A stretch of DNA of 64,000 nucleotides from Psammoneis japonica (lineage: Eukaryota): NCBI GenBank assembly GCA_008632985.1, contig QPGO01000036.1:1-64000 (forward strand), read 5' to 3'. Of this stretch, positions 1,673 to 64,000 are shown one piece after another (the first letter of the stretch is position 1; each line of letters opens with the position of its first letter). Made by a program: the position numbers and the translations under genes. Under the pieces are notes generated by a model that saw only the letters and a program-made list of their open reading frames with translations, was not told the DNA's origin and ran no database searches.

Positions 1673-2109
1673 ACGGTAGTGGTCAGATTTCAAAATCTGA
1701 GCAATACAGAAATGTCAATGATGAATAAGGATTTTAGATTGCTTCTGCCGTAAATATCATTACGCCAATGCCACTAATGAATACACAAATGAATTTGTAT
1801 TCCATCCTTTTCCTGAACTTTGATCTATCGGCATTTTCGATACGAGTACTCGACGCGATGACAACAATGAGGCATGCTTGTATGTGTCATGGCCATAAGC
1901 TGTGAGGCGTACCGTCACATTTGGATTGAACTCGGGGATCTTGATGTCGAAAGTAGCCATTTGTTTGACATTCGTGATTTTTCATCGCCCACAAACTGGG
2001 ATTTCAACTGAGTCGAGTTGATGTTGGACGTGTTTCAAAGCACTGCGTTTGATGAAACAATTGAGGGCTCTGGAATTATGGCATTTTATGCCATGGAGAC
2101 TTAAAACAG

Positions 2110-15986: not shown

Positions 15987-16527
15987 GATCGAGAGGTTCC
16001 CGGCTTATGGATACTGCTACGGTAGCATCTTGGGACCAGGCAGTCGACTCTTGACCAAATGAGCAACATTAGGATAAGGCATGTAACCAGGACTTGCTTC
16101 TCCCGTCATTAGCGCTCCTGATGACAAAAAGCTTTTTGTACTAGGAAAGTGGGCGAGGTACCATTGGAGATTAAAGAAGGCGTGATACTTTAAGAGAGAT
16201 TAGATAGGGTTGTTGCGCAATAATACTCACACTTTCTGAGAAGGCGTTGACACGTTGACGTACCTTGAAATAGTGGATTTGCTTTTCGTTTGCGGGTAGA
16301 ACCCGTGGATGACCAGTCAAGTAGTGATAGAGAGAGCTGGTACCGCATTTCCCGGCTCCAACAGTCGTGAAACCTGGGAGGCAGTAGCCACTCAGATCAG
16401 GCTTTGGCACGTCAGAAAGAAGAGCGGAGTGTCGAGGGATCTCATGACACTCTAGCTTCAACGGGTCGTCGCGTTGTTGTTTGATAAGATTCGTCCAGTT
16501 ACATTAGCTGCTTCTTGGGGGTGGGTA
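15987..16527 (-). pseudogene. Partial inverted duplicate of the sulfotransferase gene at 34450-36102
   Basis: Reverse complement matches about 34779-35309, including the 76-nt intron; lacks both gene ends. Confidence 0.9.
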
Positions 16528-16960
16528 ACACACAACGGGTGTCGGGTGGTGCAGGTGTTGGCTGCTCACGCTGCATGGACCTTGCTCAGACCTCGCTGCT
16601 CGCTGCACTCAGACCTCGAGCCTCGTCGCGAAAATCTTCGCTGCGAGTCACGAAATTGGTGTTCGCAGTTGGAGATTCTGGGCGTGTGCTCCTTTTGTCT
16701 CCCTTCCTTGGCTGGAATGTGCTGCCGGCACCAATGGGCTGTTGGTTTGCACGATCTTTTCGATCCGTCGAAGGGCGATTCTCCCCCCCAATCAGACAAA
16801 CTGAGCTCACCATTACGACGTCAAGTGCTTGTAGTGGGCCTGCGATCAGCCTCTTTAGGTGGTTTGCTTGCGCGTCGCTTGGTGTGGAGGGTGATGCAGC
16901 CGGTGCTCATGGTTGGTTTTTGCGGTGTGCATGTGATAGATGTGATGGTGCTTATTGTTA

Positions 16961-17475
16961 CTGTAGAGTGCGCGAAACGTCAGAATTGCGCGTTGGCGAA
17001 AACCACAACTTTTTTTTCTCTCCTCCCGCAGCCGCACATCCCGAGTTTTGCAATTGACGACGCTTTTGGCCTCAAACGGCGGCGAACAAGGCATCGGTAG
17101 AACCGTAATCATTGTAAGAACATGTGTATTGCTTTGTTTGTGAAAATCCGTAATGAATTCGTCGAGAAAAGTGAGTCTCGTAGTCGTTTTGCGTGCAATT
17201 TCGCGTTGGGTGTTCCCGAGAACGCGATTGCTTTTTCGATTCAGCGTTGTCCTTGTACGGAGAAACGCTGAATCGCAGCTTTATTGTAACACATGTCTTG
17301 CCCATGTGCTGGATCTTGGGATGCGTCTGTCTCGGCGTCACGACAAATCGTTTTATTGCTCATTTTTTGGCCGCTGCTGTGTGTTGTGTTTGCCAGAGCT
17401 CATTGTTGTTGCTTCAAAGAGGATCCGCTCCGGGCTGTCCAAGGCGCGGAACGTCTCTTTGTTGTGTTTAAAAGA
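16961..17475 (+). repeat. Left terminal inverted repeat (515 bp)
   Basis: Reverse complement of 19031-19544 with 14 transitions and one homopolymer indel. Confidence 0.95.
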
Positions 17476-17528
17476 CACGTTCTAGATAGATTAGCTGGAC
17501 AGAGCACAACTGCATGTTTTAGTCTAGT

Positions 17529-18887
17529 CTAATGTGACACAGCTGCTCGAACAGCTGTGTTGAATCCTCCAACACAGCTGAGGAAGAATTCTTCCTCAGC
17601 ATCCCCCGTCTTCCTTTCCTGATTGTCATCGCACCCTGGCACCCCACACTTGCGAAAACAGTTCCTAGCTTTTCGTGGCGTCATCTCTTCCAATGCCAGC
17701 TCGTGCACCATTGACCAATTCATGCCTTCTTCATGAGAAAAACGCTTCAGGCCGGACTTGCAAACAGAGAAGCAGTGCTCAATTGGATTCAAATCAGGGC
17801 TGCAAGCTGCTGTGTAAACTGGCTTGGCTCCAGCATCTTCAATCAGTTGTCGAACGTAGTCAGAGATGTGTGTCGATGCGTTGTCCATCAGCACCACAGA
17901 CCACGGCTCGCAAAGATGATGCCTCCCTGGAACCGGCACCAAATCATTCTCAATGCATCTCTCAAACCTTTCCATGTCCACAGTCCCACGTTCCGGGTCA
18001 TTGTCATGAGGGCCATGTTCACGTTCTGCCAGCGTGCACGCTTCGATCACAAAACCGTTTGCATCTGCAGCACCAACAACGGCGCACCTCTTGCGAAAAT
18101 CTTCCTCAAAATGTGCATCAACTGCGGGTGGTTTGCCAAATTTTCCCCAGCCACGCAAACGCCTGGATGCGTTGGCACTCTTTGCCGTCTCATCAACAAA
18201 GATGGCCATCTCTGGTTTTTCTACGAACAACTCCAGCCGTCGAAAGCACCTCTCCCGCTTGGCCTCGCATCTTTGTCTTGAACGAAAAACCATTTTTTGA
18301 AGAGAGCAGCCCAGTCGGTGCAATTGACGCCACATGGCAGAGGGGTGCCATGTCACACCCCGGCGTCGTCTCATTGAAAGCTGCATTTCATCGAGATGGA
18401 GATGCGGCTTCTCTCTCACGATGTCAAGCAGCACTTCATCATCCACCTCTGAAAATGATGCAGCTCTTGTTGTCACTCTGCAATGCCTTTTCCAGCTGTT
18501 CATTCTACGGCGAGCAGCAGCTTTTGTCTCACCACACTGAAGGCAGTGGTGAAACCAGTCATAAAATGTCTTGCACTTGATCCTCCGGCCAAACATCTGA
18601 TCAACTTCTTCCCAAACAGATTTGAGAAGACGGATTTTCCCACCATCCTTCTGTGCATGCTGCCACGCATTGTCCCCCAGTTTTTCCATTGCAGTCTCAA
18701 CATGCTCCTTCTGCAGTTTCTTGTCGTCGTGCGCTGCACCGCCATGCCGTCCAGGTGCATTCGGCCTGTTGCATGTGTGATGCCGAACTCCGGGAGCAAC
18801 CCAAACCCCATGTGTCATGTCCCATCTTTGTGCCTCTCCAAAATTGTTGCCCTCCCCCGCAGCAAACAACTCAGCTGCTGTTGCCAT
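17529..18887 (-). CDS. DD34E transposase (DDE_3/IS630-like), hypermutated
   Basis: Motifs IFVDET, VLMDNASTH, ACSPDLNPIE (34 residues between second D and E); HTH region PHLHLDEM...RLGCS; conserved Tyr positions appear as Cys/His. Confidence 0.9.
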   Translation of the reverse strand: MATAAELFAAGEGNNFGEAQRWDMTHGVWVAPGVRHHTCNRPNAPGRHGGAAHDDKKLQKEHVETAMEKLGDNAWQHAQKDGGKIRLLKSVWEEVDQMFGRRIKCKTFYDWFHHCLQCGETKAAARRRMNSWKRHCRVTTRAASFSEVDDEVLLDIVREKPHLHLDEMQLSMRRRRGVTWHPSAMWRQLHRLGCSLQKMVFRSRQRCEAKRERCFRRLELFVEKPEMAIFVDETAKSANASRRLRGWGKFGKPPAVDAHFEEDFRKRCAVVGAADANGFVIEACTLAEREHGPHDNDPERGTVDMERFERCIENDLVPVPGRHHLCEPWSVVLMDNASTHISDYVRQLIEDAGAKPVYTAACSPDLNPIEHCFSVCKSGLKRFSHEEGMNWSMVHELALEEMTPRKARNCFRKCGVPGCDDNQERKTGDAEEEFFLSCVGGFNTAVRAAVSH

Positions 18888-19030
18888 GAGACATGGAAAG
18901 GTTGTTGCCACAGTCAACACTCGACAAAGCCTGCACTTCAAGTGACGAGAAAAAGGCAAACATGCCGTTAGATTGGCGATGATTTCACGACGCCAAGATC
19001 CCCGTTTTGAAAAATTCAAAGCAACGAATC

Positions 19031-19544
19031 TCTTTTAAACACAACAAAGAGACGTTCCGTGCCTTGGACAGCCCGGAGCGGATCCTCTTTGAAGCAACAA
19101 CAATGAGCTCTGGCAAACACAGCACACAGCAGCGGCCAAAAAATGAGCAACAAAACGATTTGTCGTGACACCGAGACAGACGCATCCCAAGATCCAGCAT
19201 GTAGGCAAGACATGTGTTACAATGAAGCTGCGATTCAGCGTTTCTCCGTACAAGGACAACGCTAAATCGAAAAAGCAATCGCGTTCTCGGGAACACCCAA
19301 CGCGAAATTGCACGCAAAACGACTACGAGACTCACTTTTCTCGACGAACTCATTGCGGATTTTCACAAACAAAGCAATGCACATGTTCTTACAATGATTG
19401 CGGTTCTACCGATGCCTTGTTCGCCGCCGTTTGAGGCCAAAAGCGTCGTCAATTGCAAAACTCGGGATGTGCGGCTGCGGGAGGAGAGAAAAAAAGTTGT
19501 GGTTTTCGCCAACGCGCAATTCTGACGTTTCGCGCATTCTACAG
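19031..19544 (-). repeat. Right terminal inverted repeat (514 bp)
   Basis: Inverted copy of 16961-17475. Confidence 0.95.
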
Positions 19545-19810
19545 TATACAAAAATTGTGTGGGATTCTACGCGGGTCTCCCTGGTCGCGGAATAGGGAAC
19601 AAAAGAAAGATCCGGACCGGACGTGACATTTTTTGGATGGGCGACAGGCGACAGGCGGCACAGTTACAAGTTCATTCAATCACAACTAGCCATCGCGAAG
19701 TAAGTGAGAGGAGTGAGGAGTGAGAGAGCAGGCTTAATAATTTGCGGGTTGCGGACTTGGTGGCAGAAGCAAACTGCTTATTCTGACGCCTCTCCCGCTT
19801 TCGGTCTGCA

Positions 19811-21763: not shown

Positions 21764-23479
21764 TTATAGGACCATCTTTTCTTTTGCACCGTCCTCACTT
21801 TTCAACAATTCCCGAATTTGACGGTAGGGGTAGAGAGATCGATGCCCGTCAGACCAATCTATGGAATGTGCGTAGTTCCCGCATGATGCCATGTTCAGCG
21901 GTCGAATCGAATCGGAAACAGAGCGGGGATCCAATATTTGACGCCCTGTCATCTCCTCGACACATGCTGCACAGCGACATGCTCTTCTCAGTGCAGCAGG
22001 ACCGATAGACTCCCCATCCACCTCGATAGTGTGCTTTTCCTCGTCGTAGGAAATTGCCGGTCTCGAACCATCGCTTCCCGAGAACTTGGCCTTTGCTACT
22101 TCCACTACGACAGATTCTGCGAGGTCATGAAATATATCAGCTTGAGAGCTTTCGGGATTCTCAAGGATGTAAGGTGTCCCAGAATCCCCATTTGCGGCTA
22201 TCCGATCCATGAGTGGCAAAGAAAACGTGTGTTCAATTCCCCATTGGTCGGACAGTCGCTTCTTGTGCCCGGGACCAAAAATATTAACTTTCTCTTTGGA
22301 TGGTTCCTGCTGTTGCTGTACAATCTGGACCAATTCTTCAGACAATTCCTCGGTTGATTTGTCGCCATTCGTAGGAGTGACAGCCTGGTTGAGTTTTGAC
22401 ACAAAAGTATCCTTTAGTTTGGTCGTATCGACCTTGGGAGTCGAGTCAACTTCATAGTAGGCCATATTCTCTACAACAGCAACACAGGGAACATTCACGG
22501 TATCAAACATTTCAATGCCACGGACAACATCGGCGTAGCTCAATTCTTGTGGAGTTGTTACAATCACAGCTGCGGTGATATTCAGACGTTGAGTGAGAGT
22601 TAGTTGAATATCACCGGTTCCTGGAGGCATGTCGAGAATGAGATAGTCGAGAGGGCCCCAGTTTGTGACGCTGAGAAATTGATCCAACAACTGGGTAATC
22701 ATTGGTCCTCGCATGACAGCTGACCCCTCATTGATATATCCAAAACTCATGAGACGAACGCCGTTGCGTTGCAAAGGTGCTATTTGACGGCCGACAAACC
22801 TGACCATATCGTCGTCTGGTTCGACCATTGTGGGCAGACTGGGTCCATACACATCAGCATCAAAAATACCCACAGCAGCTCCCAAGGATTGAAGAGCAAA
22901 GGCCAAGTTGACAGCAGTAGTTGACTTTCCCACGCCACCTTTACAACTGGAAACGGCGATGACAGCGCCCACTTGTGACATGCCGATGCTATCCGTCTCC
23001 ATCGCTGTTGGCTGTGCAGTCATGGTAACGTCAACGTCTGACGTCCAAGGAAGCGCATTTATCAAACTCTCGCATTCTGCTGCAAACTGATCTTTGACGG
23101 GACAGGCAGGAGTTGTCAGCTCCACGTCGAAAGAAATCTTCCGCCCATTCAATGACAAATTCTTCACAAAGCCGAGCGTAACGATATCAGCATTCAAATC
23201 GGGATCTATCACACTTGATAGTGCTCCTAGAACCTCTCCTTGCCATTCTGTAGGTATTGGCGGAAGATCCGGAGAAGCATCGTCCGAGGATGACGTGAAC
23301 AAAATAGAATCGGCCAATGTGGGGGCTGGTCGCGCAGAGGTTGAAGTCGTCCTCTTGAAGCTGTTTGCAGCAAGGGGAACGAACGCATCACTATCACTGA
23401 AACGTCCGATAATTAAAATAAAACCAACCCATACGATAGACATGGACTTCATCCGACCAACAACGGCAAAAGAGGCCAT
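21764..23479 (-). CDS. HCF101: Plastid Fe-S cluster scaffold HCF101 (DUF59 + Mrp/NBP35 P-loop NTPase + DUF971)
   Basis: VIDPDL...LTTPACP, SSCKGGVGKST, DADVYGPS, DMPPGTGD, C-terminal CRCAAC...WSDGH; SDAF plastid-targeting motif. Confidence 0.92.
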   Translation of the reverse strand: MASFAVVGRMKSMSIVWVGFILIIGRFSDSDAFVPLAANSFKRTTSTSARPAPTLADSILFTSSSDDASPDLPPIPTEWQGEVLGALSSVIDPDLNADIVTLGFVKNLSLNGRKISFDVELTTPACPVKDQFAAECESLINALPWTSDVDVTMTAQPTAMETDSIGMSQVGAVIAVSSCKGGVGKSTTAVNLAFALQSLGAAVGIFDADVYGPSLPTMVEPDDDMVRFVGRQIAPLQRNGVRLMSFGYINEGSAVMRGPMITQLLDQFLSVTNWGPLDYLILDMPPGTGDIQLTLTQRLNITAAVIVTTPQELSYADVVRGIEMFDTVNVPCVAVVENMAYYEVDSTPKVDTTKLKDTFVSKLNQAVTPTNGDKSTEELSEELVQIVQQQQEPSKEKVNIFGPGHKKRLSDQWGIEHTFSLPLMDRIAANGDSGTPYILENPESSQADIFHDLAESVVVEVAKAKFSGSDGSRPAISYDEEKHTIEVDGESIGPAALRRACRCAACVEEMTGRQILDPRSVSDSIRPLNMASCGNYAHSIDWSDGHRSLYPYRQIRELLKSEDGAKEKMVL

Positions 23480-23853
23480 TTTGCTGCTGTGCCAATTTTT
23501 TCTTTGTTCCCTGCCTCCGAAAATGTGGCGCAGAAACCAGCCAAGTTGAACTTTGAGCTCCGTGGTACAAACGACACTAGAAATCTTACATACGTAAAAA
23601 CCAGTATCTTTCCCCGTAGTTCTGTTCCACGCGGCGGTGCTTGCGTATGCTTTCAGCTTCTGGACAAACCAACACACAGGCAAGAGAAAGATGGAGATCG
23701 CTCGATGCTCGATGCTCGATGCCAGATGCCAGTGAAATAAATGCCAACAATGGCAGTGAGCAGAGTGGCGGTGTTGAAAACAGCAGACTGTTCACAGGGA
23801 CAAAGAAGACTATCCGATAGGTCGATTGAAGATGCGTGTTTCAGAAACTTAGC

Positions 23854-30099: not shown

Positions 30100-30360
30100 A
30101 CGAGCTCTCACGCCCAGCTAGACCCTCTACTCTCTAGTCTAGAGTACCGGTAGAGCTAGCTCTACTCTCTAGTAGTAGTAGCTCTAGCTAGTAGTAGTAG
30201 CTAGCTCTACTCTAGTAGAGAGAGTCGTCTCGCTCGCTAGACGGTAGGGACTACCCTATCTCCTCTCTCTCCTCTCTAGCTAGCTAGCTACTCTAGTAGT
30301 ACAGTAGAGTCGGAAAGGTATGTAGCTGCGCGTAGGCCGTCCACTCTAGATAGATGTTTG
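30100..30360. repeat. CTAG/TAG/AGAG low-complexity tract
   Basis: ctctagtctagagtaccggtagagctagctctactctctagtagtagtagctctagctagtagtagtagctagc... Confidence 0.8.
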
Positions 30361-34449: not shown

Positions 34450-36102
34450 ATGTATGCCTCCGAGGTGGACAGAAGGCGGTCGAGATACGTTGTCGTGCTG
34501 GTGCTAGCGCTGGCGATCGGCGTGGTCTATTTCACGCTGGATGCATCGACAACGTCAACTCGGGGCGGTATTTTGGGCTTGCGAAGTCAAGGAAAGCACC
34601 ATGGATGGTCAACTCCCCAAGCAATGCCACAAGAAGTAACATCGCTATATTCGGAGAATGATTTATTGAACTCTAACGGGATTACGCCTCCGTTCTGGCC
34701 CAAGCACTGGAATTGTTCTGCAGAGTCGGAGGACGAAGGCGTCTGTTCCCCTCCCCCGTCGAAGACATGGGGACCCTGCTACCCACCCTCGAGAAGCAGC
34801 CCATATAACTGGACAAGTCTTATCAAACAACAACACAACGACTCGTTGAAGCTAGAGTATCATGAGATCCCTCGACACCCCGCTCTTCTTGTTAACGTGC
34901 CAAAGCCTGATCTGAGTGGCTACTGCCGCCCAGGTTTCATAATTATTGGAGCCGGGAAATGCGGTACCAGCTCTCTCTATCACTACTTGACTGGTCATCC
35001 ACGGGTTCTACCCGCAAACGAAAAGCAAATCCACTATTTCAAGGTACGTCAACGTGTCAACGCCTTCTCAGAAAGTGTGAGTATTATTGCGCAACAACCC
35101 TATCTAATCTCTCTTAAAGTATCACGCCTTCTTTAATCTCCAATGGTACCTCGCCCACTTTCCTAGTACAAAAAGCTTTTTGTCATCAGGAGCGCTAATG
35201 ACGGGAGAAGCAAGTCCTGGTTACATGCCTTATCCTAATGTTGCTCATATGGTCAAGAGTCGACTGCCTGGTCCCAAGATATTAGCAATAGGCCGGGAAC
35301 CTCTCGATCGATCTTGGTCCTCCTACAAGTACAATTACGTTATTCCTGCAATGGAGAAGCTTCGTAAAGGCCACCACAAGGGTGCGCTTAGAGGAAAATC
35401 AGAAGATTACTACCAGAAGTTCCTCTTTTCTTTCGAAGACATGATTGAAGCCGAACTGACGGCGTTGAAAGAATGCTTGGCACCCGGTGGCATTGGAGAG
35501 ACTGGAGCGAGGAATTCATGGCGTTCAAAACCTTGGTTCAAGGATGAATTCGACCGGCGTGAGAAGGAGGGATTGCCCCCGTTGGTTGACTTGGACAAGT
35601 ACTGCTATCCGAATACCCGGTCCGCAAAGGTCCCGCGCCGACAATGGGTTAGTTTGGTTGAGAAGCATCCCGAAAAGATTATCAATCTTCCCAACTTGCA
35701 GCTAGTCCAAGCCATTATAGGACGCTCTCTCTATGCACTTCCTTTGGAGTGGTGGTATGCTACTCATGGGGAATCTGAAGTGTACTTTGTCTGCACAGAA
35801 GAACTGGAGGATGAAACGGGCGAGCCGTTGAATGAGATTGCAACCAAGTTTTTGGGGTTACCTTCCTATGACTTTTCTCAGGTTGTTAGCGAGGGCATGT
35901 ACAATGTGGGATACAACACAGGTTACGATCAAGCTACAACGTGGGAGGTGGTCGATAGCATGGCGATAGCCACCACAAAGGGAATTCACACAATCAGGAC
36001 GACATTCCAATTTCGAATGAATTGCGAAAGGAGCTTTTAGATTTTGTGAGACCATTCAACGAGCGTCTCTTTCAACTAACTGGTAAACGTTGCAACTGGT
36101 GA
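34450..36102 (+). CDS. Type II membrane sulfotransferase (heparan-sulfate/NDST-like Sulfotransfer_1), intron 35044-35119, frameshift near 35960
   Basis: N-terminal TM; 5'-[37 protein letters not shown]; alternative-frame C-terminus [23 protein letters not shown]. Confidence 0.88.
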
Positions 36103-37665: not shown

Positions 37666-40600
37666 TCACTGTCCTGCCGGTGCAAACCTCTGGTCCTTGT
37701 TGTCACAACCCCCAAAATGAAACCCCCAGCTGGACCCACAGGCTGTCACTTCTTCCACTGCAAAATGTGCACCACAGGCATGCATCATGGCACTTGTTTG
37801 AAAGCCAAGCACAGAGCTGGGGCGACGTGCCAGAGGCGCCAAAAATGATCTCATCTCCCGCGCTCATCTTGCTCCAGCCCAAGGAGGTGGCTTTGACTGC
37901 AGCAGCAAGAGGAAATGCAGAGTCCAGAGGAGCAGAGAATGTGACACCAAGCACCCCACAGGCACCCCAAGTCAAACTCTGGTGGACAGGGTGCAAACTG
38001 CAGCACTGACCTCAGCTCCAACAAAGCAAGTCAAGAGGCAGCACAATGAGCCACAGAGAGAGAGCAGCAGACAGAGCCGGGCAGCCATCTGCACATGACT
38101 CTGCAGCAGATGACAATGTGTTGTCAGCTTCAGGGATTGCAGTCTTCAACAGTTTGTGAGGGTGTGTTGGCATTTGGCTGCAACAACATGTCAAGTGAGC
38201 ATGAAGAAGAGAGAAGAGCACAGTCACTTCATTGTTCATTTGTGCAGAGTTGAAATGATGGTGCCACATTCTGTGATGATTGATTTCAAGTCAGCATCTC
38301 CCAGACACATTCCTGAGTCACCAGATCCTGCCATCACACATGCACACACACACTCTCTTGCACAACTTAGCTGCATTCCCTTCTTCATCACAATGATGAT
38401 TTGAAGCTTGCTCTGCAGTCATTGGTTGCCTGGTTTGGCAATGCATGTCATTTGCTGTGCAAAGTCTTCTTGAGCTTCCTGCAACAAAACCCCCAGCTTT
38501 CTTTGCCATTTTCCAGTCATTTTCTTCATGTGCTTTATGCTGCAGTCTGCAGCTTTCTTCTGTTGTCTCCCAGATGTAGTGGGGTCAAGATGGGGCTCTG
38601 AACAGCACAACTGGGGCCAAGTCAAAGGTTCATGGCTTGCCAACTGGCAAAAAAAGCCAGCAACTCATGCAGTGCATCTGCAAGAGATAAAACAACAAAT
38701 GTGCTAGATGTGCAACAAACTCTGGACTTGCTGAGTTGGCAGTGCACAACAAACCTTTTGCAAATGATGATGTCATCTGATTAAAAACAAGATCAACCAA
38801 AGCTGTGTTTTGTGCATGACAATTGACCCAACAGACAACAACACACACGTCTGTGAATTTGACCTCATCAAGATTTCAAGCATTGCATGTAGAGTGAGGC
38901 CAGATCCACAGACACTTTTGTGCACCATGCAACCCCTGTTTCTGACATTGTTGCATGCATGGTGTTCACTTCCAATGGTGCATTCCCTCTTTAATTTCTT
39001 CAAAAAAGCAGCCCAAGTGCCACAATGCATTGCTCTGTTTTCCAGAAAATGTGTGATGTTTTTCCCTTGGTGCCAAATTTCCTTCACCAGCATGCATTTG
39101 TTGTCAAACAACAAACTGTGGTGGGCACTGAAAAATCAAAATGATGTTGCTTTCATGGGTTGGAAGCAGCACCATGTTGGCAATTGCAAGGACTGGTGCC
39201 AGCAAAAGGTGAGACTTGTGCAACCAACAATGGAGTCAAAAATGTTTTGCAAAAGATTGTGCGTGCTTGTGAGAACTCGTGCAGGCTCAAGTGTCTGCTC
39301 TTCACATGCAGCTGAGCTCTTGCATGGCTCTTCTTGGAGATTGTCTGCACGGCATGGCAACAGCAATTGGAAAGAAATCAAGAGCTTCAAGAAGTGGCAT
39401 GGATTCTCTGCAGGGACTTTGAGAAGGGATTGCAGCACACAGCTGTGGACTGACTGTGGCCCCGGCCATTTGCACTTTGAACAAAAAACTTCAACAAGGT
39501 CAGTGACTTTTCAAAAAAGTGTTGGACTTCCAGTTTTCATCTCAGCCACAGATCTCAAGGTCCAACACAGTTTGCTCAGAAAAGCAGCAAGCCTTCAATG
39601 GTTTTAACTTGAGCAGGTCCAACAGTTTTTTTAAATGCTTGACCTCCATGGTTTTTGTGTGGACCTCAGATCTTGTCAAGGGTCAGCAAATCTTTTTAAA
39701 AATGTGAAAGATCTTCATGGCTTGCATGCCCTGACATCAGACATCAAAATGTGACCTCCAATGAGCCAGATCTGCAATGATTTTGTCTGGCCTCAGACAT
39801 TGAGGGACAAAGGTTTTTTCAAAATAGTGTCAGACATTTGACAGCTTTCATCCAGACCTCAGAGACCTTGAGATCCAACTGCTTTTTTCTAAATGACACA
39901 CCAGACCTTTGACAGTTTTCATCTGGACCTCTCTAACCTTGAGGCATGTGGTGGTTTTGCAAAAAGGGCCACAGACCTTCAATGGTTTTTTGTTTGAAGC
40001 TCAGACCTTGAGGTCTGATGTTTTTCTCAAAACAGCAGCACACCAGACCTCCAATGGTTTTCTTTGTCTGCACCTCAGACCTTGAGGTGTGATGTTTTTT
40101 TTTTCAAAACAATCTCTGATGGCTTTGGTCCAGAGTTCAGACCTTGCTTCAGGTGTGACAGTTTTTCAAAACAGCACCAGACCTCTGATGGATTTTGTTT
40201 GGACCTCAGACCTGAAGGCATCATGTTGCTTTTTTCAAAAAAGTTTCAGACCTCTGATGGTTTTTGTCTGGACTTTGGGTCTGTGTCTTTGTCCAAATGT
40301 CCCACTCCGGCATGTTGAGATCCCACCTTGAGCCAAAGTGCATCATGTGCGAACAATGCCCAGCCTGACAGCATTCAGAGGTTGCAGGCCAGGCATTTCC
40401 AATTGTTGCCATTCTTGGCTGTGCATCACTCACAGATTCCAAGTGGCTTTCCAACTTTTCCAAGCAGGTTCTGCATCATTCGCAGAGATGTTCAATTTGT
40501 CCAGCAGGCGCCTGCTGGGTTTTGCTGCATCTCTGCTTGATTTTGGCATTGGGAACAAATCACACAGCACCACCTCATGCAACTCTCTCAGCACCCTCTC

Positions 40601-41140
40601 TGCTCACACTTTGTTTTCTTGAACAGTTTTGTGCAGGTGCAACTTTTTGTGTTTTGGTGCAGACACAAAGGCAGCCACAACAAATGTGCAAGACACAGCG
40701 TTCTAAAAGCCATTTGGACAATGAACACACAACAGCTTGAACCTAATCTGTGGGACAAGGGACAAGGTCATTGAAGACATTGGAGCTGAGGACAAAGTGT
40801 CAGTTGTCAACTGCCGCAATCTGCAGAGGACTCTGTGCCAGCAGCCATCCATCACACCCAATGCTCTCAAGGTTGTTTCATAATTTCAAAAGCCTGGGAA
40901 CTGCTGGAGGTGCCCCCAAGATGAGCCACAACCCATGCAAAGGTGCTGTTGTAACACATTTTAGCTCTGTGGGCACAACACTCCTTGCTGGTCTAAAGCA
41001 TTTGCAGTTCTCTTCTCATGGCGGCCTTCCAATTGTGAATTGTGAGGATGTCACTGAGGCGGCTTTTGACCGAGAATTTTTGCATTGCCATTGCACACTT
41101 TTGTGACTTCTGTCCCAGCATTTTGCAATGGATCCCTCTT
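37666..41140. mobile_element. Degenerate DNA-transposon domain (possibly hAT-like), TpA/CpG-depleted
   Basis: Near absence of TA and CG; internal 60-bp tandem array; minus-strand remnant WVNCHAQNTAL resembles the hAT CxxH motif (weak). Confidence 0.55.
39490..40280. repeat. Degenerate ~60-bp tandem array, about 12-13 units
   Basis: Consensus-like cagacctctgatggttttgtctggacctcagaccttgaggt...ttttttcaaaa recurring. Confidence 0.85.
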
Positions 41141-49694: not shown

Positions 49695-50110
49695 CTATTG
49701 CTGCTCGACAAGCCAGTTAAGAATGTAGTCGTCAAAGTTTGGAAGAACGTCGCCTCCATCGAAGTTAGCATGCCCCCCTGTATCAAAAGTGACAAGCTTG
49801 GTTTCATTGTGTACCATATATCGTGATGATAATTGGTGTGGCACTAATGGATTATCCCTGGCCCAACACATTTGAACATGAGGGTGCAAAAGCCCCTGAC
49901 TGTATCGCTACATTCGGTTTCATCCAGGAAACTAGCCGGATGCATAATGACTGCACCTGCTGCATGTAATCTTAACGGGCCTCCTTTCTTTGCTGCATCA
50001 GAGAGCATCGTAAATCCAATCCTCCAGACCAACTTTTCACACCCAGATGAAATGGCTTTCACTTGACACCCCACCCAAGCCCTTCTTGAATCACCGCATG
50101 TGAATGATCC
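49695..50110 (-). pseudogene. Alpha/beta-hydrolase-like C-terminal remnant at the edge of a mutated domain
   Basis: QMCWARDNPLVP...KLVTFDTGGHANF resembles the acid/His region of alpha/beta hydrolases; frameshifted; upstream part runs into TA-depleted DNA. Confidence 0.45.
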
Positions 50111-53100
50111 TCAGGCAGCTTTCTCAGACTTGTTGAAAGAATCCCTTTGCCCGCTCTTTTTGATGGGTGGGATGCAACTGTAAAAACTCCTCCCATTGTG
50201 ATTCTGATGGCACCGAAAAGATGTGCTTTGCAAAACATGGTGAATGGTGAGAAACTCTTTGAATCGCTGTGAAGCGTGCGCACTGGTTTGTTGTGATGTC
50301 GGTCGTCTGCGCATGCTTTTCAGGCGACCCCAGTGGGAAGATGGCGCAGGTCTGTCCATTTGCAAACACCAAAGGACCCCGATTCAATCGACCTCCACCT
50401 GCCTGGACAGTGTGCCAACTGACTGTCCACAGTGACTGTTGATGCTGTGCCTTTGAGACAACAAAAACCTGCCATCATGCTGAACACAGTGCCAGGATCA
50501 ATTCAAATTTCACACGCACAGCCTGCGGAATTGCGCGCGACAACCACCCCTTGTTCGCACTGCTGCATTGACTGCACAATGTCCACTTCTCACTTTTTTC
50601 TGACGATTTTTGAAATTGTCACAATGTGCACCTTTTGTTTTTTCTCCATTTCCTGTTTATGTTCTTTTTCCCACTGCCACCTTCTGTCCATCCCATCTGC
50701 ACTTCTGGGCCAGCCTTTTTCTCCACACTGCTGCCCCTTCTGCTCTCCACTGCCAGCCCCAGCCACCACACATGCTTGTGCTTTTCCCCCAAACCATGCT
50801 GGCAACAAGAAGAAGCAGAGCATGTGAAAGAGAAAAAAAGCTGCTGTGGCTTTTGGGCTGGCAACAACAAGCTCCCCAAAGCTGTTTGGGCAGCTTGCAG
50901 ATCTGCAAACATTGCCTTCACAGTTGCTGTCAGTTTTGACAAGAATCAAATGCAAAAGACCAACCTGCCAATCTTTTTGGAGTTGTCCAGCTTGCTGCTG
51001 CAAAGTTTTATTGCTTTGAGTTTGTGGTGCTGCCAGAGCTGTTTGGAGATCTTCTGAAGCTCTGGTGAGATTGCATCAACCCAGCTGAAAAAACAATGGT
51101 GGGTTGTGGCATCTTGTTGTTGTGACTGCCACTTGTTTCTGGCGGCATGCTGCACACCATTTTCAACACAAACAGAATTTTGAATTTTTCTGCCCATCAA
51201 ATTGAGTCATCAACGGATGTGGAAACTCTTCCCTTTTTGCAATTTTTTTTCTTTCGAGTTCTCTTTGGAACTCTGCAGTGGTGCTGGAGCAACTTGAGGG
51301 TGTTCAGAAGCTCTGATTTTGCAAAACAACACAAATCAACATGAGTGGCACATTGCTGCAATGGCAGTTGGCACCATGTTTTTTCCCACTGAATCTTTCA
51401 AATGTGCTTCTCTTGCCTGTTTTCTTCATTTGGTGGCACCCTTGTGGTCTGATCTGATGTTGCTTCTCATGGTGACTTGTGTTTCATTGTCAAAGAGACA
51501 AGTGGAGCTCTGCACACACTCAGGATGTGGCCCAAAAAGCTGGGTGCAAAAATGGAAGAGGTCCAAGATTTGGGTGTGTCCCCAGCCCTTTTCTTGAAGA
51601 AATCACCCCAGCTTCTGTTGGCTTTGCCTGACTTTTCTTGTGGCCCGATCTGGCATTGCTTCTCATGGTGACATGGTCTGTTGCTGTGGAGCCTTGGTGA
51701 TCAAATTGTTCTTGAGCAGGATCCACATGTGAGGGCTCTTGGAAGTTTTGCACCTTCATGCCCCGTGGTGCCATGGGTGCACCTGCTCCATCTCTCAGAC
51801 TGTCCCGGGCTGTGGCTCTGGCTGTGGGCATTGTTCTGATTAACTGGCCAGCTGGCACCCTGTGCTGCAGAGACATCTGCTCCATCTCTCAGACTGTTGA
51901 GCACTGTGGCTCTGGCTGTGGGTGTTCTTTTGATGGACTGGCCAGCTCACCTGTGCTTCTTTGTCAAAGAGTGATGAGCAAAGCTCTGCACACACACTCA
52001 GGATCTTGGGCTGGTCCCATCACAAGACACCAAAATGGAGGAGGCTGAAGATTTTAAGATCATGCTAGGCCTTGCATTGAGAAAGAATCAAACCATCTCA
52101 GTTCCCCCACTGTCTTCGCTTGCTGTCCCCCCCTCGTGGTCTGGCCACATTTCTCATGATGATGGTCTGTTGCTGCAAAGCCTTGGTGGTGGTCAAACTC
52201 ATTTTCAAGCAAAAGCCACATGGCATGTTTCATGAGTTGCACACCTTCACGCACCACAGATGCTCTGAAGAACCAGCAGGCCTGCGGGGAGCATTGATCA
52301 CTTGTCTTTTGTTGTGGGTGTGTGCCGTTGGGCGCTGCATTGCCCGTGCGTGTGCAGGTGCCTGCCGTTGGGGCCAGCATTGCAGCAGCAGAGTGGTGGG
52401 GCCGCCTCACTGGCAACACAGAGGACCATTGTGTTTGAGAGCTCATGCCAGTTTTGGGGCTGCAGCGCGGTGCACGGACACTCTTTTTTGTCCAACTTGC
52501 CGACAAAATGGTGCGCTGCACAAACTCACTCATTTTTTGACATGTTTTTCCCAGTGTGACTGTTTTGTGTGCAATTCATCACAAATTCTCTTCACACAAA
52601 GCTCAATGCATTTTTCAACATGCCATGCCAGCAATCCCAATTTTGCGGTCCTTTGGAGCTCTTCTGAAAAACAGTTCCACGCCCCCACAGGGAGGGAATT
52701 TGTTGGTTCTTTTGGGAAGTCCCTGTGACCTCCAATGTCCTCAATGATCATTCGCTGAGTCCGAACAATTCATTTGCACTGAACAACACATGCTGTTCCA
52801 AAAAACATCCGAGGGACACACTTTCAAATTCGGACCGACCCCCGACTGCCCGACTGCCCGACCCCCCGACGGACACAAAAAAGAAAAAATTGTCATGCGT
52901 GATGCATGGCGCATGGGAACAACTTATCGGCGACTGGCGTGGTGCCAGCTCAATGGAAAAATTCAAGTCAGAAGTGTAAAAAACATGCCAGAGCCTGCGC
53001 CACTGGTGGCGCAGAATGGTTCAGGGTGCACACAAATTTTGTGCCACAGTGGCGCATGTGATTTTTGTGCGACACTCTACACGCGCCCAGTGGCGTAGAC

Positions 53101-54425
53101 CCAGTGCAAAAACAACAAATTTTTGAAGTCTTGTGGCATGCAAAGTCAGCATGTTGTGGCGTAGATTCGACATCAACAAGGCTTCACGCAACACTCGCAA
53201 CAACCAAGACAACAGAAAACCGCTCGCAAAATCTCGCTCCCACTTCACACATTGCAGCTGATGTGGTGTTGTTCATTTGTCTCACTCGTTTTCATCGTGG
53301 AACCTCCTGATGACACAGGGTGTCTTTCAGGCATGTGCATCGGTCTGATTGCCCCCCCTCTTTGGGCAAGAATGGGGTGTGTGGTTTGCTTTTTGAAGAC
53401 ACCAGACCAGCCACAAGGATGAGCTTGCAGTGGAGAGCTGGCAAGCAAAGAAGCACTGGGCTGTGCCACAAGGCACTGGCTGATGGGACAGCATTGGGCA
53501 AGCACAACCACAAGCATTTTCCTGAGGGCACTTTGCACCACATGTGACAAAGCCAGAAACATGGACTGAGAAACACAGACAGAGCCAGGTTTTGCTCAGC
53601 TGGCCACCCAGAATTCAAGCAGGGGTGCAGCCGGAATGAAGAAGGCTGCAGGTCAATTTGAGGTCCCAGTGGGAACTTGCTTTGCATGTTTGTTGACAGC
53701 CTGCTGCAGAAGCCGTGGCTGCACTGGAAATCCAAAGGTGGCTTTGCGTGGTGGGGAGGATCTCGCAAATTCTCTCAAGATTTTGCGACGCATGAGGCCA
53801 AAATTTGGGTGCAGCATCCACAGATGCTTTGGGAGAGATGCTGTGAATTTGTCAAGGCAGGCACTTCTGACAGCATGGGTGGGGAAGGCCAGTGCTTGTT
53901 GCCAGGGATCTTTGTGAAGATCTTTTGAAGAGGATGACACTGCATTTTCTCGCTTGGAAACTTCAGAGAATTGTTTGAACACAGTGGGGCCAAACCCGCC
54001 AAAGTGTGCATTGAATTTTGGAGAACAAAGAAGACACAAATCCGTGGCAGTGGCCACCAAGCTGGTGGGGCAAGGCTTGGAAAACAAGCTGCCCAAAAAG
54101 CCATGATGGGCTGGCAGCAAAACACTCCTCACAAAAGATGCCACTGTCAAGCTGCCACAGACTGGCACAACTCCACAGTTCTCCAGCATGCTGTGGGAGC
54201 TTTGCTGTCAAGCATGTAAAACCACAGCACCTCAAGTCACAGACAAGCTGCTTTGCAGGCAGAAGCCCAGCCAAGGGCCGCAAGTCAACAGCCCCACAAT
54301 GTCTTCTCTTTTTCTCCTTTTTCCTTCTTTTCCTCTCTCTCTTCTCCTTTTCTCCTTTTCAGTTCATTCTTCTGGGCCGCCTCCGGCGGCCACCTCTTTC
54401 ATTCTTCCCACATGCCGAAATCTCG
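49990..54425. mobile_element. Nested degenerate transposon domain, TpA-depleted
   Basis: Extreme TA depletion; internal diverged direct repeat; subterminal-like motif clusters at 52824-53165; many spurious Cys/His ORFs. Confidence 0.6.
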
Positions 54426-57964: not shown

Positions 57965-60900
57965 CTATTTGTAGGCATCCACAGACTCTTTGCTTCGTCT
58001 CATCAAGAATTCAAGTGACTTAAGCAGCCCTGCTCTCGACACATTTTGCGAAACGTTCTGCGAGTGACGAGTGGCAGAGATTTCAAACGCGGTAGCAACC
58101 TGATTGGCACACAAGCGACTTTGCCGCTTTTGTGCAACTCGCGGTCTTCCTGAGTGAGGCTGTGAGAGCAGGGACTTGAATGGAAACAGGACATGGTCTC
58201 CCGTTTTCAGTTTGCGGATAGACTGACAGAAGTCGGCTGTTGAGACCTCTTGAAGAGTATATCCGCCGGCACGAATCCAGCTGCAAAGCGTGTCTAGACG
58301 GATGGATTCAGTTCCGCACAAGTGAAAAGCACAGTTTCTACCAAATCTTGCGACGTAGTCATCCCACTGTACCTCAGAGATGTAGGCAATAGCCCCGGCG
58401 ACAAAATCGACGGGGCAGAGGTTGAACTCGTGGGGAATCGGGGAGTCACTTGATTCCGAACTCACAACTCCTTCTTTGACGAGTCCGAGAAGCAACATGT
58501 TTGTTGCGTCTTTTGGGTTGCTGGCGCCACTCTGGGCATCCCCGGCTATTGACCCAGGCCGAACAACGCGTATTCGGCAATGCAAGCGCGAAGCTGCAGT
58601 TGAAACCAGCTGCTCGGCAACCCATTTGCTCTGGGCATAACCCGAGCAAAGTGCCAGTCTAGCTTCACCAACGTCTAGGGTTTCAGAGTGGCCAATCGGA
58701 AGGAAACCCATTGTCGAAACATGAAGCAATTCAGCTTTCGCCAAAAGTGACAATTCCAGTATCCGACGTGTACCCACGACGTTGATTTCCCGAAGCTCAG
58801 AGTATGGCGCGATGGAGCTGACGTGGGCCCCGCAGTGGAAAATGGCTTTTGTTCTACGCGACAGATCAAAGTAATCATCCAGAGAAAGTCCCAAGCGGGT
58901 GGATGCCAAGTCTCCAACCAGCATCGAGCATCGATGGAAAATGTCCCCACACAGTTCGTACCATTCGAGATTCTTTCGGAGCCTTCGACTCGCCACCTCC
59001 ATATTCGGTGCTCTAACCAGGCAACATATTCGGCATCTTTTCCAAACAGAACTATCGAGCAGGGCTCTCAGCAGGAAAGCCCCCAGGAAGCCTGTTGCGC
59101 CCGTGACTAGGATCGTGTCCGGAGCCGATGTTTGACCCTTGGTTGCTACATCCCTGTAGCGCTTGAGCTGCTCTCGGAGTTGACCAATGTCATTGGCCAG
59201 AATGCCAAACTCCTTTTCCACCTCATGGCGCCAGTCAATGACGTCGGCGCGGACTGCAACTCGCCGAGCTGCTGTCGGACCACTGAACAACACTCTCTCC
59301 AGGTCCGCCAACGTCGAAAAGGCGAAAAGATCGCGAGGAGAAAGATGTGAGTCAAACCTTTCTTGTAGCATAGACGACAGGCGTGCGACTGCTAGCGAGT
59401 CCAAACCCAGTGAAATGAGAGAGTCGGACGCTTTGGGTCTCAGCGACGGTTCAGCGGCTGCCATACAGATTGACTCTGCCAGGCCAGCGCAGGGTGCTCC
59501 ATTTTCAGTACCATAGCTTCGCATTGCAGAATACTCGTCGCCGACATAACGTGTCGTACCACCCGCGAGCTGCTCCTGGTATCTTTGAATCAAGGCGGGT
59601 CGGCACAGCTTTCCTCCGGCCACGAGCATCCCGTTTTCTTGCGAAAATGGCTCGGGCTCCACTACCACTTTCCGTGGAATTTCCCACGGCAGTAGCCCTT
59701 TGATGCTCCTACCTGGCGAAGATTATCAATGATTTCACATTCTAGATGTTCCTTTTTCAAAAGGTGTCGCTTCGGTACAACAACTGCCGCCACGCAACTC
59801 ATGTTGGGCATTCCCCATGCAAAGATCTGGAACACCCATTCACTTTCCAGCAACGCCTCTTCTACTTTCAATGGAGCCACAAAATGTCCCTGATTCAACT
59901 TGAAATGACTCTTACAACGATCAATGATACGAATTGTCCCGCTACGGAGTCGCTCCCCGACATCGCCTGTGCGAAAGTACCGTACACCACCCAACGTGAT
60001 CCAATCCTTATCGCCATCATCATTGCTGGAGCCGACCACAGCAGCAGCATCAAACGTTCCATCGTTGCGACACTTGGCACGATCAAAGTATCCACCCGCA
60101 GCGATACTTGTCTTGGTTTGCGCGACAATTTCTCCTCGCGCGTGTGGTTGATCGGCGGTCGTGTAGCCCAAATCGGGTCGATCCACCAAGCGAACCTCGG
60201 CCGATGCGACGATCATGCCATTTTGTGCCAATGACCCCGTCTCGGTTGTCCCGTACGCATCCACAAGGGAAACACCGGGGAAGACGCGACAAAGAAATCG
60301 TAGCGTCGCATGGGGCAAGGGACTCCCCGTGGAAACCAACACCTTGATGCGATTTCCCAAAGGCCGACGGTGCATCCATTCCAGCAAGACTTGTTGCTTG
60401 ATTGTATTTATTTCATTTTCGCTTTTCGACCCTCGCTGGCACACTTGATTTTCAAAATCGGTCCGTAGACTGTTCCAAACCGCAGCTGTCCCCGTCAAGG
60501 ATGTGGGACAAAGCACGCGACAGTCATCCGACAAGTTCTCCAGCGATCCACTACTGGCACAGCCAATTTTGCCTCCCCGTAGGAGCACGTCGTGCGTTTG
60601 TCGCATCACCTCGTAGGCATACGCTACATTCGGTTGTTCTTGTCGTCGTCGTCGTCCCCGTTGCTCTTGGGGCAAGGAGGCCAGTACCTTGTGCATTTGC
60701 CTCTTGAGCGTTCCTTCCGTCACGACGGTCAGTTGAGGCCTGCCCCCCGCACTGCCGCTAGAGGGTAGTAACTTGACAATGGCATCGTCGGGTGCTTGTG
60801 CCGGCACCCACTCTTGCACATGGATAGGTTCCGCGGCACCCAGCGCCATGACTTGGGACCATGTGTATTGTTGACGTATCCGCGGGTTGGAATCCATACT

Positions 60901-61893
60901 AATGGCAGCAGCATCAATGTTGCTATTCCCTGCTGCCCGCGGATAGGCCTCGGCACGGTCGTGTATCCACACCACTATAATACCCGGCGGAGACAACGCT
61001 TGTGGATTGTCCTTCTCCAGTTCCTCCTCTATCATCAATAGCGCTTGTTGCAAAATTGATTGCAGGTGAATGGACACCACGAGTATTTCCAAGGCGGTCG
61101 TTTGTAACACATGCCGTAAGGATGCGGCCCGCATGCATCGATGCAAGGGCACCAGTCCCAATCCCTTAAGGGCACAGGCATAATCACACACGAACCATTG
61201 AGGATTGCCACTTGGAGAGGCCCATAGTCCCACGAGATGTGGTGGAGGTGGTCGTTGTTGTTGATGATGTGTTTCCAAAAGCAACGCCCAAAGTCCGGTA
61301 CCAAATTGTTGTGCCTCTCGTCCAACGTCAGCGTAGGTGCTCCATTGATAGTCGTGACGTGCTGTGGGTTGATTCTTCTTTTCGCTATTTCTTGAGTCAC
61401 CACTACTTCGTTCTCCCAAACAAGGCCGAGGACCGTACAGCCGGAACGTTGCTTGCAGTATTTTTGCTGTACTGTGGTGAAAGGATTGTTGCACAAACCG
61501 AGTCGTGTCTACAAGGCTGGGTACCGTCTCTTGGTGCAAGAAGAATCCTCCAACCTCGGCGGCGGCGGCAGCAGCGGCTGCACATGGGTAACGTGCCAAA
61601 GCAGCGCCTTGTCGCTTGTCATCATGACAGTATTGACATTCGTCATGCGTTCCATCGTCACAAATATTACATGTATAATACGATTCGAGAGGCCAAACAA
61701 TGTAGGCCCGACAGGCATGACAGGTTCGCGCAACAACGGGCAAATAACCACCGCTCATGATCCGTCGCCACCACGACACTGTCGTTGCCGCCGTCGCGGC
61801 GGAGATTCCTCTGTTGGGTTGTAGCGGCGGCGACTGCCACCAAAGACGGATCCAGCGCGGCAATGAGACTAGAGCAGACCATACAATGCCCAT
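57965..61893 (-). CDS. Carboxylic-acid-reductase-like NRPS (zinc finger - acyl-AMP ligase - T - thioester reductase); frameshift near 59680
   Basis: YQWSTY, AYGTTE, FRTGDVG, IIDRCKSHFKLNQG (LC-FACS/CAR type); GLDSL Ppant site; TGATGFLG, GYAQSKW, RPG in the R domain. Confidence 0.88.
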
Positions 61894-63025
61894 GATGAGT
61901 ACTAGCTAGTTGTCGTCATCGGGGCGTGCTTCTTGCTTCAGCATTCCCTCTCGGGCTTCTCTTCACATTTTTTGAGCCTTGTTCTCTCGTTTTTGAGATG
62001 ATGATGTGATTCTTCGCGAAAGTTACCGTGCGGTGACACTCACGGACTGAATCCAGTCCATGCGTCTACTCGAGCTACTACTCTATGGCATCCTAGTGGG
62101 GGTCTAGCTGGTGCCGCTGGTGCCCACACCAAAGAGACAAACCCACAACAAAAGGCAAAAACAATGGTCCTCAACAAAGTTCCTAAGAATGGCCACAGTT
62201 AAATGTGGGCAATCTGTGAGTCACACCACCCAAAATGAGAAGCAAGACCCCCCCTCTGGGTGCCCTCCTCCTGCCTGCCTTGTCCCCCTGCCCCCTCCTG
62301 ACAACACCATCACCGCAGCTGATCCAACACAACTGAGAATGTTCATTGGTCAAATCAGCTGGAGTTGCAGCATCAAAGATGGGAAGTGGAACATGCCACA
62401 TTGCCAAAAACCAAAACACTTGATGAGGATGGCCAGCCAGAGTTTTGGACTTTCTCCGCCAATGCCAAGGGCAGCAACACAACCCCAGTGTCGGGTTTGA
62501 TTTGAAGCAAAACAACACAAAGTGTCAACTGCCACCCTTGGAAGAAAAAATTTCAAAAACCATGGTTTGCATCCAAAGAATGTGACGAAAAGAAGGAAAG
62601 GAGCCTTGCTGAGTGAATGAGCAGGGACAATGACAACTTCCACACTCTCTGTTGAACAAACCATTGGGGAAGCTTTTGTCAGACAAGGGACAAAATGCAC
62701 TCAAAAGAAGGATTTTGCTGAGCTTGTAGAATGTCTCAGCAAAGCACCTGAATGCACGAGCTTGGAGACTTCCATTGATGCCAACATTTGTGGCCCACAA
62801 GCTGCGCCATCATTGCACATTGTGAAGGAATGGGGAGGAGGACAGGGCAGCACCTTTGAGGATCTGCTGCATGGTTTTTTGGACTGAGAACTTGGGCATT
62901 TGTCTGAAAACTGGTCCTTGATCTCTCAGCTCCTTGGCCCATCATTTTCCTCAAGCTCAAGCTGCCAGGAAAACACTGCAAGGCCAACAAAGGACCACGA
63001 TGAGAGTTTCCACTTGAGGGCCAAC

Positions 63026-63347
63026 TGCAGCATGCATGCAGACAAAAGGTTATTTTTGTCACGCCCTTTGTGACATTTAAACTGTAACACGTCGCCGTGA
63101 TACATTAACTCTTATTAGTAGCTGTATATTGCACTCCTCCCCATGTATCACGCGCAGAACTAATGTGCACTGACACTGCACGTTTTTGGCGGAACAGTGT
63201 GGGTACGTACAAAGGAACATACAGAACTGCACAGAGTTTTACGCGTTCGACAGTGATCAACGTTGCTGCAGACAACTCCCACTCAGGGTTTCGAACCCCT
63301 GGCCTCCTGCCTAATGGTCACGCATTGAACCACTCCGCTATGAATTC
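63026..63347 (-). mobile_element. tRNA-derived SINE-like element
   Basis: Minus-strand head gaattcaTAGCGGAGTGGttcaatgcg...GGTTCGAAACCctg with Pol III A box (63330-40) and B box (63287-97); cloverleaf imperfect, so not a functional tRNA. Confidence 0.7.
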
Positions 63348-63460
63348 ATAATGCAGCATGCATGCAGACAAAAGGTTATTTTTGTCACGCCCTTTGTGAC
63401 ATATAAACTGTGACACGTCGCCGTGACACATTGACTCTTGTCAGCAGCTGTGTGTTGCAC
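63026..63460. repeat. 109-bp direct repeat (63026-63134 and 63352-63460)
   Basis: tgcagcatgcatgcagacaaaaggttatttttgtcacgccctttgtgaca... occurs twice, with 9 differences. Confidence 0.95.
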
Positions 63461-64000
63461 AACCTCTTCATCAGCAGCAACACAGCATCACAGCAACATT
63501 TGGTTTTTTGATGCACATGGGTGCACTCACATGGCACCAACCAGTGAAACAAATGAGCTGTGTTGTGATCTTCCAGCTGTGCAGATTGCTGATTTTAAGG
63601 TTCAGCTCTCCATCTCCAGTTCTCTGAATGGGACAAAGAAGCTGCAGTCTCCTCCAGAAATGCCTCACCTTGATCTGCCTCTTCCAAGCCAGAGCACTCT
63701 ACTTGCTGATGACTTGTTGCATTTTTCAGGTCCATCCTTGGGGTTGCTTTTGTGCGGTGCATCGTGCGGCATGTCACACAAAGCTGCTTCAACCACGACC
63801 AGATTTGAGAAGTTTGTTTTGGTCAATCAGCTCGGAGCCACTCCTTCATCCCAGCAGAGGCCACAGGGCCTCATTTTTCTTCCAATCAAATCATCAACCA
63901 GCAAAAAGCAGCCACAAGTGGCTGACAATGATCTGACCTCAGCAGATGCACTGCACCCGGTGCTTCTGGCATGTCAGAAAATGACAGAACTCCCCTCTTC

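Follow-up and report, generated by a model that had tools for sequence, protein, structure and literature searches.

A 434-bp mobile element at 63026–63459 of the window (the whole 64-kb stretch of DNA analysed here) has two LTRs that differ at eight TpA sites, all of them crowded into one end of one LTR. The transitions concern TpA only, affect either strand, are independent of CpG and spatially bounded, and still differ between two versions of the locus. We consider it likely that this LTR element underwent TpA-specific A:T→G:C transitions after its insertion, within a bounded domain of silent or foreign DNA. The original prediction had described a 109-bp direct repeat in which eight of nine differences are TA→TG (five) or TA→CA (three), all in one direction, and pairwise alignment confirms this. 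Going beyond it, we find that the repeat is the LTR pair of a mobile element and that the conversion forms a sharply bounded 48-bp tract.

The element is non-autonomous, non-coding and LTR-bounded, and consists of the following parts, given here with the target-site duplication around it and the evidence for each:

63022–63025, left target-site duplication, CAAC (sequence; empty-site contig)
63026–63133, minus strand, LTR A (copy 1), unedited, 108 bp with TG..CA ends, 10 TpA and 4 CpG (alignment; loose ends)
63134–63351, minus strand, non-coding internal part (sequence and motif scans)
63352–63459, minus strand, LTR B (copy 2), 108 bp with 3 TpA and 4 CpG (alignment; loose end at 63459)
63411–63455, edited tract with 8/8 TpA converted and the three CpG inside it intact (alignment and script)
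63460–63463, right target-site duplication, CAAC (sequence; empty-site contig)

LTR A is probably the 3′ LTR, provided that the element is read on the minus strand. Adjoining LTR A is a purine run, GGGGAGGAG (minus strand, 63134–63142), a single short run and at most a candidate polypurine tract beside the 3′ LTR. The internal part also contains, on the minus strand, an A-box-like match at 63340–63330 and a B-box-like match at 63297–63287, which we take to mark a putative tRNA-like piece. The motifs lie 43 nt apart; measured against the consensus, each has two matches in the window (0.86 and 0.46 expected), and only here do they form an adjacent pair. ARAGORN called no tRNA in the window and no Rfam family reached threshold there, while a permissive Rfam scan of 63000–63500 returned one chance-level match (E = 5.9). 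The 80-aa ORF at 63109–63348 has no Pfam match. Inspected by eye in both orientations, the sequence next to each LTR showed no TGG-led match of the kind expected for a primer-binding site complementary to a tRNA 3′ end. The element has no second copy in the 64-kb window, and neither an LTR stretch nor an internal stretch matched any JGI metagenome contig in exact-pattern scans (0 matches).

TRIMs are terminal-repeat retrotransposons in miniature. The element resembles these and tRNA-derived SINEs in its short direct terminal repeats (108 bp here, with a criterion of ~100–250 bp), TG..CA ends, short target duplication, lack of coding capacity, high copy number and internal tRNA-like piece. It differs from TRIMs in having no primer-binding site and in carrying the tRNA-like piece in sense orientation beside the presumed 5′ LTR. 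We thus call the element TRIM-like without classing it as a TRIM.

The repeat search returned a single direct-repeat family, comprising 63026–63134 and 63352–63460 (109 nt, 92% identity). Alignment with MAFFT and a script showed that copies 1 and 2 differ at 9 of the 109 positions. TA in copy 1 corresponds to TG in copy 2 at 63412, 63433, 63440, 63452 and 63454, and to CA at 63427, 63442 and 63445; there are no differences in the opposite direction. The only transversion between the LTRs is T/A at 63077/63403. Each copy retains all four of its CpG (63062, 63090, 63093 and 63096 in copy 1; 63388, 63416, 63419 and 63422 in copy 2), which bears out the claim that every CpG was untouched. The further claim of eight consecutive TpA also stands, the converted sites being the rightmost 8 among the 10 TpA of copy 1, with the leftmost two (63051 and 63078) intact in both copies. 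The probability that eight random transitions over 109 positions would all fall on distinct TpA of copy 1 is 3e-8. Collapsed to purines and pyrimidines, the LTR pair is 99.1% identical.

The two LTRs of one retroelement copy derive from a single template and are identical at the start. The eight TA-versus-TG/CA differences therefore post-date insertion.

The tract that they form has an abrupt boundary. The element retains 22 TpA (10 in LTR A, 9 in the internal part and 3 in LTR B), and all eight in its last 48 bp are converted. The edge of the tract falls between 63404, the last TpA kept, and 63411, that is, within 7 bp. Were conversion random over 29 ancestral TpA sites, a set made up of the eight rightmost or the eight leftmost would arise with P = 5e-7. 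The left flank is equally TA-free, yet LTR A is unconverted, including a TpA 26 bp from the edge. Because LTR A is untouched despite this flank, simple spreading from the flanks would not be symmetrical, and saturation at eight of eight sites beside 22 untouched TpA requires a boundary that is both long-lived and base-sharp.

The transversion at 63403 in copy 2 changes ATTTAAA to ATATAAA (63402–63408), a better TATA-like motif situated 5 bp ahead of the edited tract. Reading the tract edge as a transcription start is kept as speculation, since the tract begins only those 5 bp later.

The window as a whole is eukaryotic and gene-dense, with long ORFs carrying AMP-binding, ankyrin, ion-transport, SAM and HCF101-like domains. 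Its baseline over 101 bins is 20.6 TpA, 28.1 CpG and 71.4 CpA+TpG per 500 bp. Dinucleotide counts set apart the following stretches:

2001–4000, island, nearly TpA-free and CpG-poor
17501–19000, TpA-poor stretch with CpG slightly lowered (21.7 versus 28.1 per 500 bp)
38001–41000, island, nearly TpA-free and CpG-poor
50001–54000, island, nearly TpA-free and CpG-poor
62201–63025, left flank of the element, nearly TA-free, CpG-poor and CpA/TpG-rich, with 1 TpA in 825 bp
63464–64000, right flank of the element, same island type, with 2 TpA, contiguous with the edited tract

Island stretches contain 0.6–3.3 TpA per 500 bp as opposed to the 20.6 of the baseline, and both the CA and TG odds ratios are raised in islands. 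In four stretches the gain in CpA+TpG equals the summed loss of TpA and CpG to within 3 per 500 bp: 42.3 gained versus 41.2 lost at 2001–4000, 25.3 versus 23.7 at 17501–19000, 40.9 versus 43.4 at 38001–41000, and 35.0 versus 36.7 at 50001–54000. These four look as though TpA and CpG had been turned into CpA and TpG. In the element's flanks the gain falls short of the combined loss (29.8 versus 43.9 on the left, 37.7 versus 41.3 on the right). None of the 71 island ORFs reached the curated Pfam cut-off, the same null result as for an earlier 11, and a purine/pyrimidine-coded self-comparison found the islands unrelated to one another apart from local tandem pieces.

The islands at 2001–4000, 38001–41000 and 50001–54000 hold 1.5–3.3 TpA per 500 bp and long ORFs in several frames, and tandem pieces lie within them at 2912–3178, 39759–40282 and 51475–52259. 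A composition opposite to that of the islands is seen at 30100–30320, a low-complexity, CTAG/TAG-rich intergenic stretch whose 500-bp bin has 58 TpA and 38 CpA+TpG.

Contigs of three public runs were aligned to 62000–64000, where one run matched nothing and another matched with one contig. The best-matching run is possibly the data behind the window's assembly, so the support from its contigs is not independent. One contig (depth 69) joins 63021 to 63460 and skips 438 bases, with four letters that fit either side and a single CAAC. A second version of the locus thus lacks the element. Over the stretch that holds the element (63005–63473), summed contig depth is 25,780–96,508 versus 65–239 in the flanks, a figure that is no copy number and indicates only a very abundant and diverse family. 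Of 904 aligned contig pieces, 740 are less than 99% alike. Loose ends with unrelated continuations (agreement 0.47–0.51) occur at the repeat borders 63026, 63134 and 63459. Contigs of 408 and 144 nt match island sequence with 0 differences, and the junction between the edited tract and the unique flank was not seen among the matches listed.

The same run contains a second version of the flanks at similar depth and 2.5–7.6% divergence. The two versions are probably the haplotypes of a diploid, with islands that diverge faster than expected. The flank differences listed comprise 21 transitions and 2 transversions as well as indels. At the island edge, the window has TA at both 62067 and 62080, where a single contig of the other version reads CA and TG at a distance of 13 bp, and at 63790 the window has CA versus TA in the other version. 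CG stands against TG or CA between the versions at 62314, 63755, 63764 and 63796. Adjacent CA-versus-TG pairs occur at four places (62210/1, 62940/1, 62974/5 and 63800/1) and make up 4 of the 23 flank differences listed; such pairs are expected when one ancestral TA (or CG) is converted independently in two lineages. Over 62000–63020 and 63547–63868, this second version, which has no element, differs almost entirely by transitions and has a 97-bp replaced stretch at 62423–62521.

The abundance of the family raises the question of whether the tract was edited in place. The last ~48 bp of LTR B might instead have been copied, by ectopic gene conversion, from a family member that had already been edited by the same TpA process. 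Many members of this very abundant family do carry TG or CA at TpA sites, the tract is sharply bounded with 8/8 sites converted beside 22 untouched TpA, and another repeat pair in the window (34777–35309 and 15987–16530) has its differences clustered at both ends, with the look of a conversion tract. However, a donor with the pattern TG-CA-TG-TG-CA-CA-TG-TG was not seen among the matches listed, and the tract extends exactly to the outer end of the element, where it adjoins a flank in which the process is visibly active. Moreover, the island edge at 62067/62080 differs in the same manner between the locus versions with no repeat donor involved. Copying is therefore an improbable origin for the tract, and we prefer in-place editing of the 48 bp, noting that both require the same TpA process.

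A still smaller chance attaches to an artefact, in which assembly or polishing of this high-copy sequence mixed reads of different copies, or a modified base was misread. Highly repeated elements are error-prone places, and the public runs have no platform on record. Against this, the empty-site contig joins both flanks and so shows the locus to be non-chimeric, and the exact matches of the 408- and 144-nt contigs extend to island sequence. The flank versions differ by indels, by single TA/CA, TA/TG, CG/TG and CG/CA changes, and by the element itself, and the share of strand-mirrored TG/CA pairs among the listed flank differences (4/23) disfavours per-strand misreading. The edited tract, furthermore, adjoins unique sequence, where the placement of reads is most reliable. 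In-place editing after insertion hence remains our reading of the tract.

The direction of change can be read from sites that exist in three states. At 63113/4, TA in copy 1 stands against TG in copy 2 and against CA in 56% of family depth; likewise, the terminal TATA of copy 1 is TGTG in copy 2 and CACA in other contigs. Since only TA connects TG and CA by single steps, TA is the older state at such sites. At 63427, T is found in 68% of family depth where copy 2 has C. Together, the family polarises three of the eight disputed sites among the variants listed (63113/4, 63427, and the terminal TATA counted as one). CA and/or TG also appear in family contigs at other TpA sites of the element (63209, 63220, 63241, 63312/3, 63340 and 63349), and at 63164 and 63211 the family has CG where the window copy has TG or CA. 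The depth-weighted majority is CA or TG at several of this copy's TpA sites, and TA as the consensus fails across the family. A family consensus of TG or CA, which the original prediction had set against itself, is literally found at a single one of the disputed sites, 63113, and the TG of copy 2 there is unreachable from CA in one step.

Evidence for the same direction comes from an unrelated transposon elsewhere in the window:

16952–19554, minus strand, DDE_3 (IS630/Tc1-like) transposon with 525-bp inverted ends at 96.8% identity (domain and repeat searches)
17529–19034, minus strand, transposase ORF of 501 aa, with 7 TpA in 1505 bp and CpG near normal (counts)

The transposase is poor in Tyr (0.6%) and has 5.0% His and 4.6% Cys, whereas Tyr makes up 1.9–3.4% of five host ORFs and 3.3–5.8% of 15 relatives. 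Columns were counted as conserved Tyr if at least 60% of these relatives, which are 30–53% identical to the transposase, have Tyr. At the 14 columns so defined, the window transposase has Cys in eight, His in three, Tyr in two and Arg in one, while 154 of 186 columns with other conserved residues are kept. Replacement of Tyr (TAY) by Cys (TGY) or His (CAY) is exactly a change of TA to TG or CA, which supports the loss of TpA. The three-state sites, the T majority at 63427 and the Tyr loss of the transposase thus support the direction TA→TG/CA, with TA older. The TpA-specific, one-way, both-strand and CpG-sparing process put forward in the original prediction is supported.

The TpA-poor domain of the transposon (7 TpA, 17531–19035) coincides with the ORF and is again sharply delimited, whereas the inverted ends hold 14 and 11 TpA per 525 bp. 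The unique interior is therefore more strongly converted than the inverted repeats, and repetition itself seems not to be the trigger. The 501-aa ORF stays open despite the Tyr losses; TpA editing eliminates TAA and TAG and is unable to make an in-frame stop, so that edited transposons retain long ORFs. A further line of evidence on direction comes from comparing the two inverted ends, which gives seven TA-versus-TG/CA sites (five one way, two the other), two CG-versus-TG/CA sites, one CA/TG double difference, three other transitions and one transversion.

The repeat pair at 34777–35309 and 15987–16530 is likewise inverted and aligns over 544 columns at 93% identity. Its differences sit in ~170 columns at the start and ~70 at the end, with ~300 identical columns between them, and include five TA-versus-TG/CA sites, five CG-versus-TG/CA sites and ten other transitions. 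The pattern may represent a conversion tract or patchy editing.

The reverse polarity, in which copy 2 keeps the older state and the TpA of copy 1 arose by RIP-like C→T changes at CpA/TpG, is the least credible reading of all: although the eight differences alone are compatible with it (28 eligible positions in copy 2, a chance of 8e-6 for eight random transitions) and most of the family depth is CA at 63113, with CA/TG prevailing at several internal TpA sites, CA and TG occur at one site among copies and are interconvertible only through TA, the repeat and transposon DNA of the window is TpA-free rather than TpA-rich, conserved transposase Tyr is now Cys or His, and the majority base at 63427 is T. 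RIP, as it operates in ascomycete fungi, converts CpA to TpA and yields TpA-rich DNA. The process seen here shares with RIP the dinucleotide-specific transitions, the ruin of transposons, the long runs of transitions and the action on both strands, but it destroys TpA and affects the unique interior of the DDE transposon more than its inverted repeats. Membership in fungal RIP is rejected, given repeats and islands that are TpA-free and a polarity of TA→TG/CA.

In the mechanism that we propose for post-insertion editing, TpA-specific A:T→G:C transitions would hit the A of either strand (five on the plus and three on the minus strand) and ignore CpG. The process would be confined to bounded domains of silent or foreign DNA; the domain here would be the TA-free island on the right, reaching 48 bp into the element so that its edge lies inside LTR B. 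The underlying chemistry is presumably the deamination of adenine to hypoxanthine in a 5′-TA context on DNA, to be read as G at the next replication, in line with what has been proposed for Bigelowiella natans. The CpG loss of older islands would reflect a separate, slower decay of methylated cytosine.

ADAR-type A-to-I editing and adenine deaminases of the ADAT2/TadA type share the A→G outcome. ADAR edits RNA, and its edits become heritable only via reverse transcription. In the window, by contrast, a DNA transposon and flanks are edited as well. ADAR is reported to prefer a 5′ U/T neighbour, as cited in a preprint on B. natans (bioRxiv 10.64898/2026.01.13.699255).

That preprint describes the closest known system. 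In mutation-accumulation lines of B. natans, hypermutation falls on TpA, with A→G or T→C changes in 230 of 231 cases, and two integrated viral regions mutate ~1000x faster than the remaining genome (Mettrop et al. 2026, bioRxiv 10.64898/2026.01.13.699255). The preprint also reports sparse events (2–45 per line in 186 kb), 124 clusters of TpA-depleted, CpA+TpG-enriched 1-kb windows, and an enrichment of DDE endonuclease and reverse-transcriptase domains in low-TpA coding sequences, and it proposes an ADAT2-like adenine deaminase as candidate enzyme (bioRxiv 10.64898/2026.01.13.699255). The likeness to our locus is close: changes at TpA only, giving TpG or CpA by strand, in bounded regions of foreign DNA, with a long-term trace of TpA-depleted, CpA+TpG-enriched clusters and with TpA-poor DDE coding sequences.

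There are also differences. B. natans is a chlorarachniophyte (Rhizaria), whereas the window looks like that of a diatom, and the targets there are virus genes, whereas here they are transposons and islands without a domain recognisable by Pfam. Of the targets here, the LTR element and the DDE_3 transposon fit a foreign origin; the large islands gave no recognisable domain in the Pfam search of 71 ORFs. TpA loss in the islands of the window approaches saturation and they are mostly depleted of CpG too. Mutation was followed across lines in B. natans, whereas here the hint of a locally raised rate is the 2.5–7.6% divergence between the two versions of the flank. Genes of B. natans have ~8 introns each (PMC13746701), which does not suit the long, uninterrupted ORFs of the window. 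Among the best 120 relatives of the HCF101-like ORF (21764–23791), all those with a named organism are diatoms, at 67–74% identity (Entomoneis, Seminavis, Nitzschia, Cylindrotheca, Pseudo-nitzschia, Odontella and Amphora). Literature judged by titles and abstract openings held no report of a TpA→TpG/CpA process in diatoms.

The TpA process thus belongs to a type that one preprint has already described; here it occurs on transposons and in another lineage. More tentatively, diatoms may possess a TpA-directed DNA-editing defence that is near-saturating in transposons and silent DNA, acts independently in two haplotypes and has base-sharp edges, a possibility that the sequence patterns raise and to which we give limited credence. 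If true, the base-sharp edges (inside an LTR and at both transposase ORF ends) would suggest that a transcript or guide directs the process, and not chromatin alone, and the system would be widespread and possibly ancient among SAR eukaryotes. Provided that the lineage assignment is correct, diatom genomes too are shaped by a mutational defence so far described in one preprint on a rhizarian alga. Since diatoms dominate ecologically and lend themselves to genetic work, knock-outs could identify the enzyme and the way it is targeted.

The copies of an LTR pair begin identical, which makes such pairs natural before-and-after experiments, and this pair shows the TpA process acting after a dated event, to 100% locally, independently of CpG decay and with a domain that ends within 7 bp. 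The process also calls for caution in annotation, as edited transposons keep long open frames (TAA and TAG vanish), lose Tyr, can pass as genes and escape domain searches.

Among the host genes, the minus-strand ORFs at 59662–61905 (AMP-binding) and 57965–59722 (PP-binding/NAD_binding_4) overlap by 61 nt (59662–59722) in different frames. The region 57965–61905 on the minus strand probably represents a single gene, carboxylic-acid-reductase-like or NRPS-like, that contains a short intron or a frameshift.
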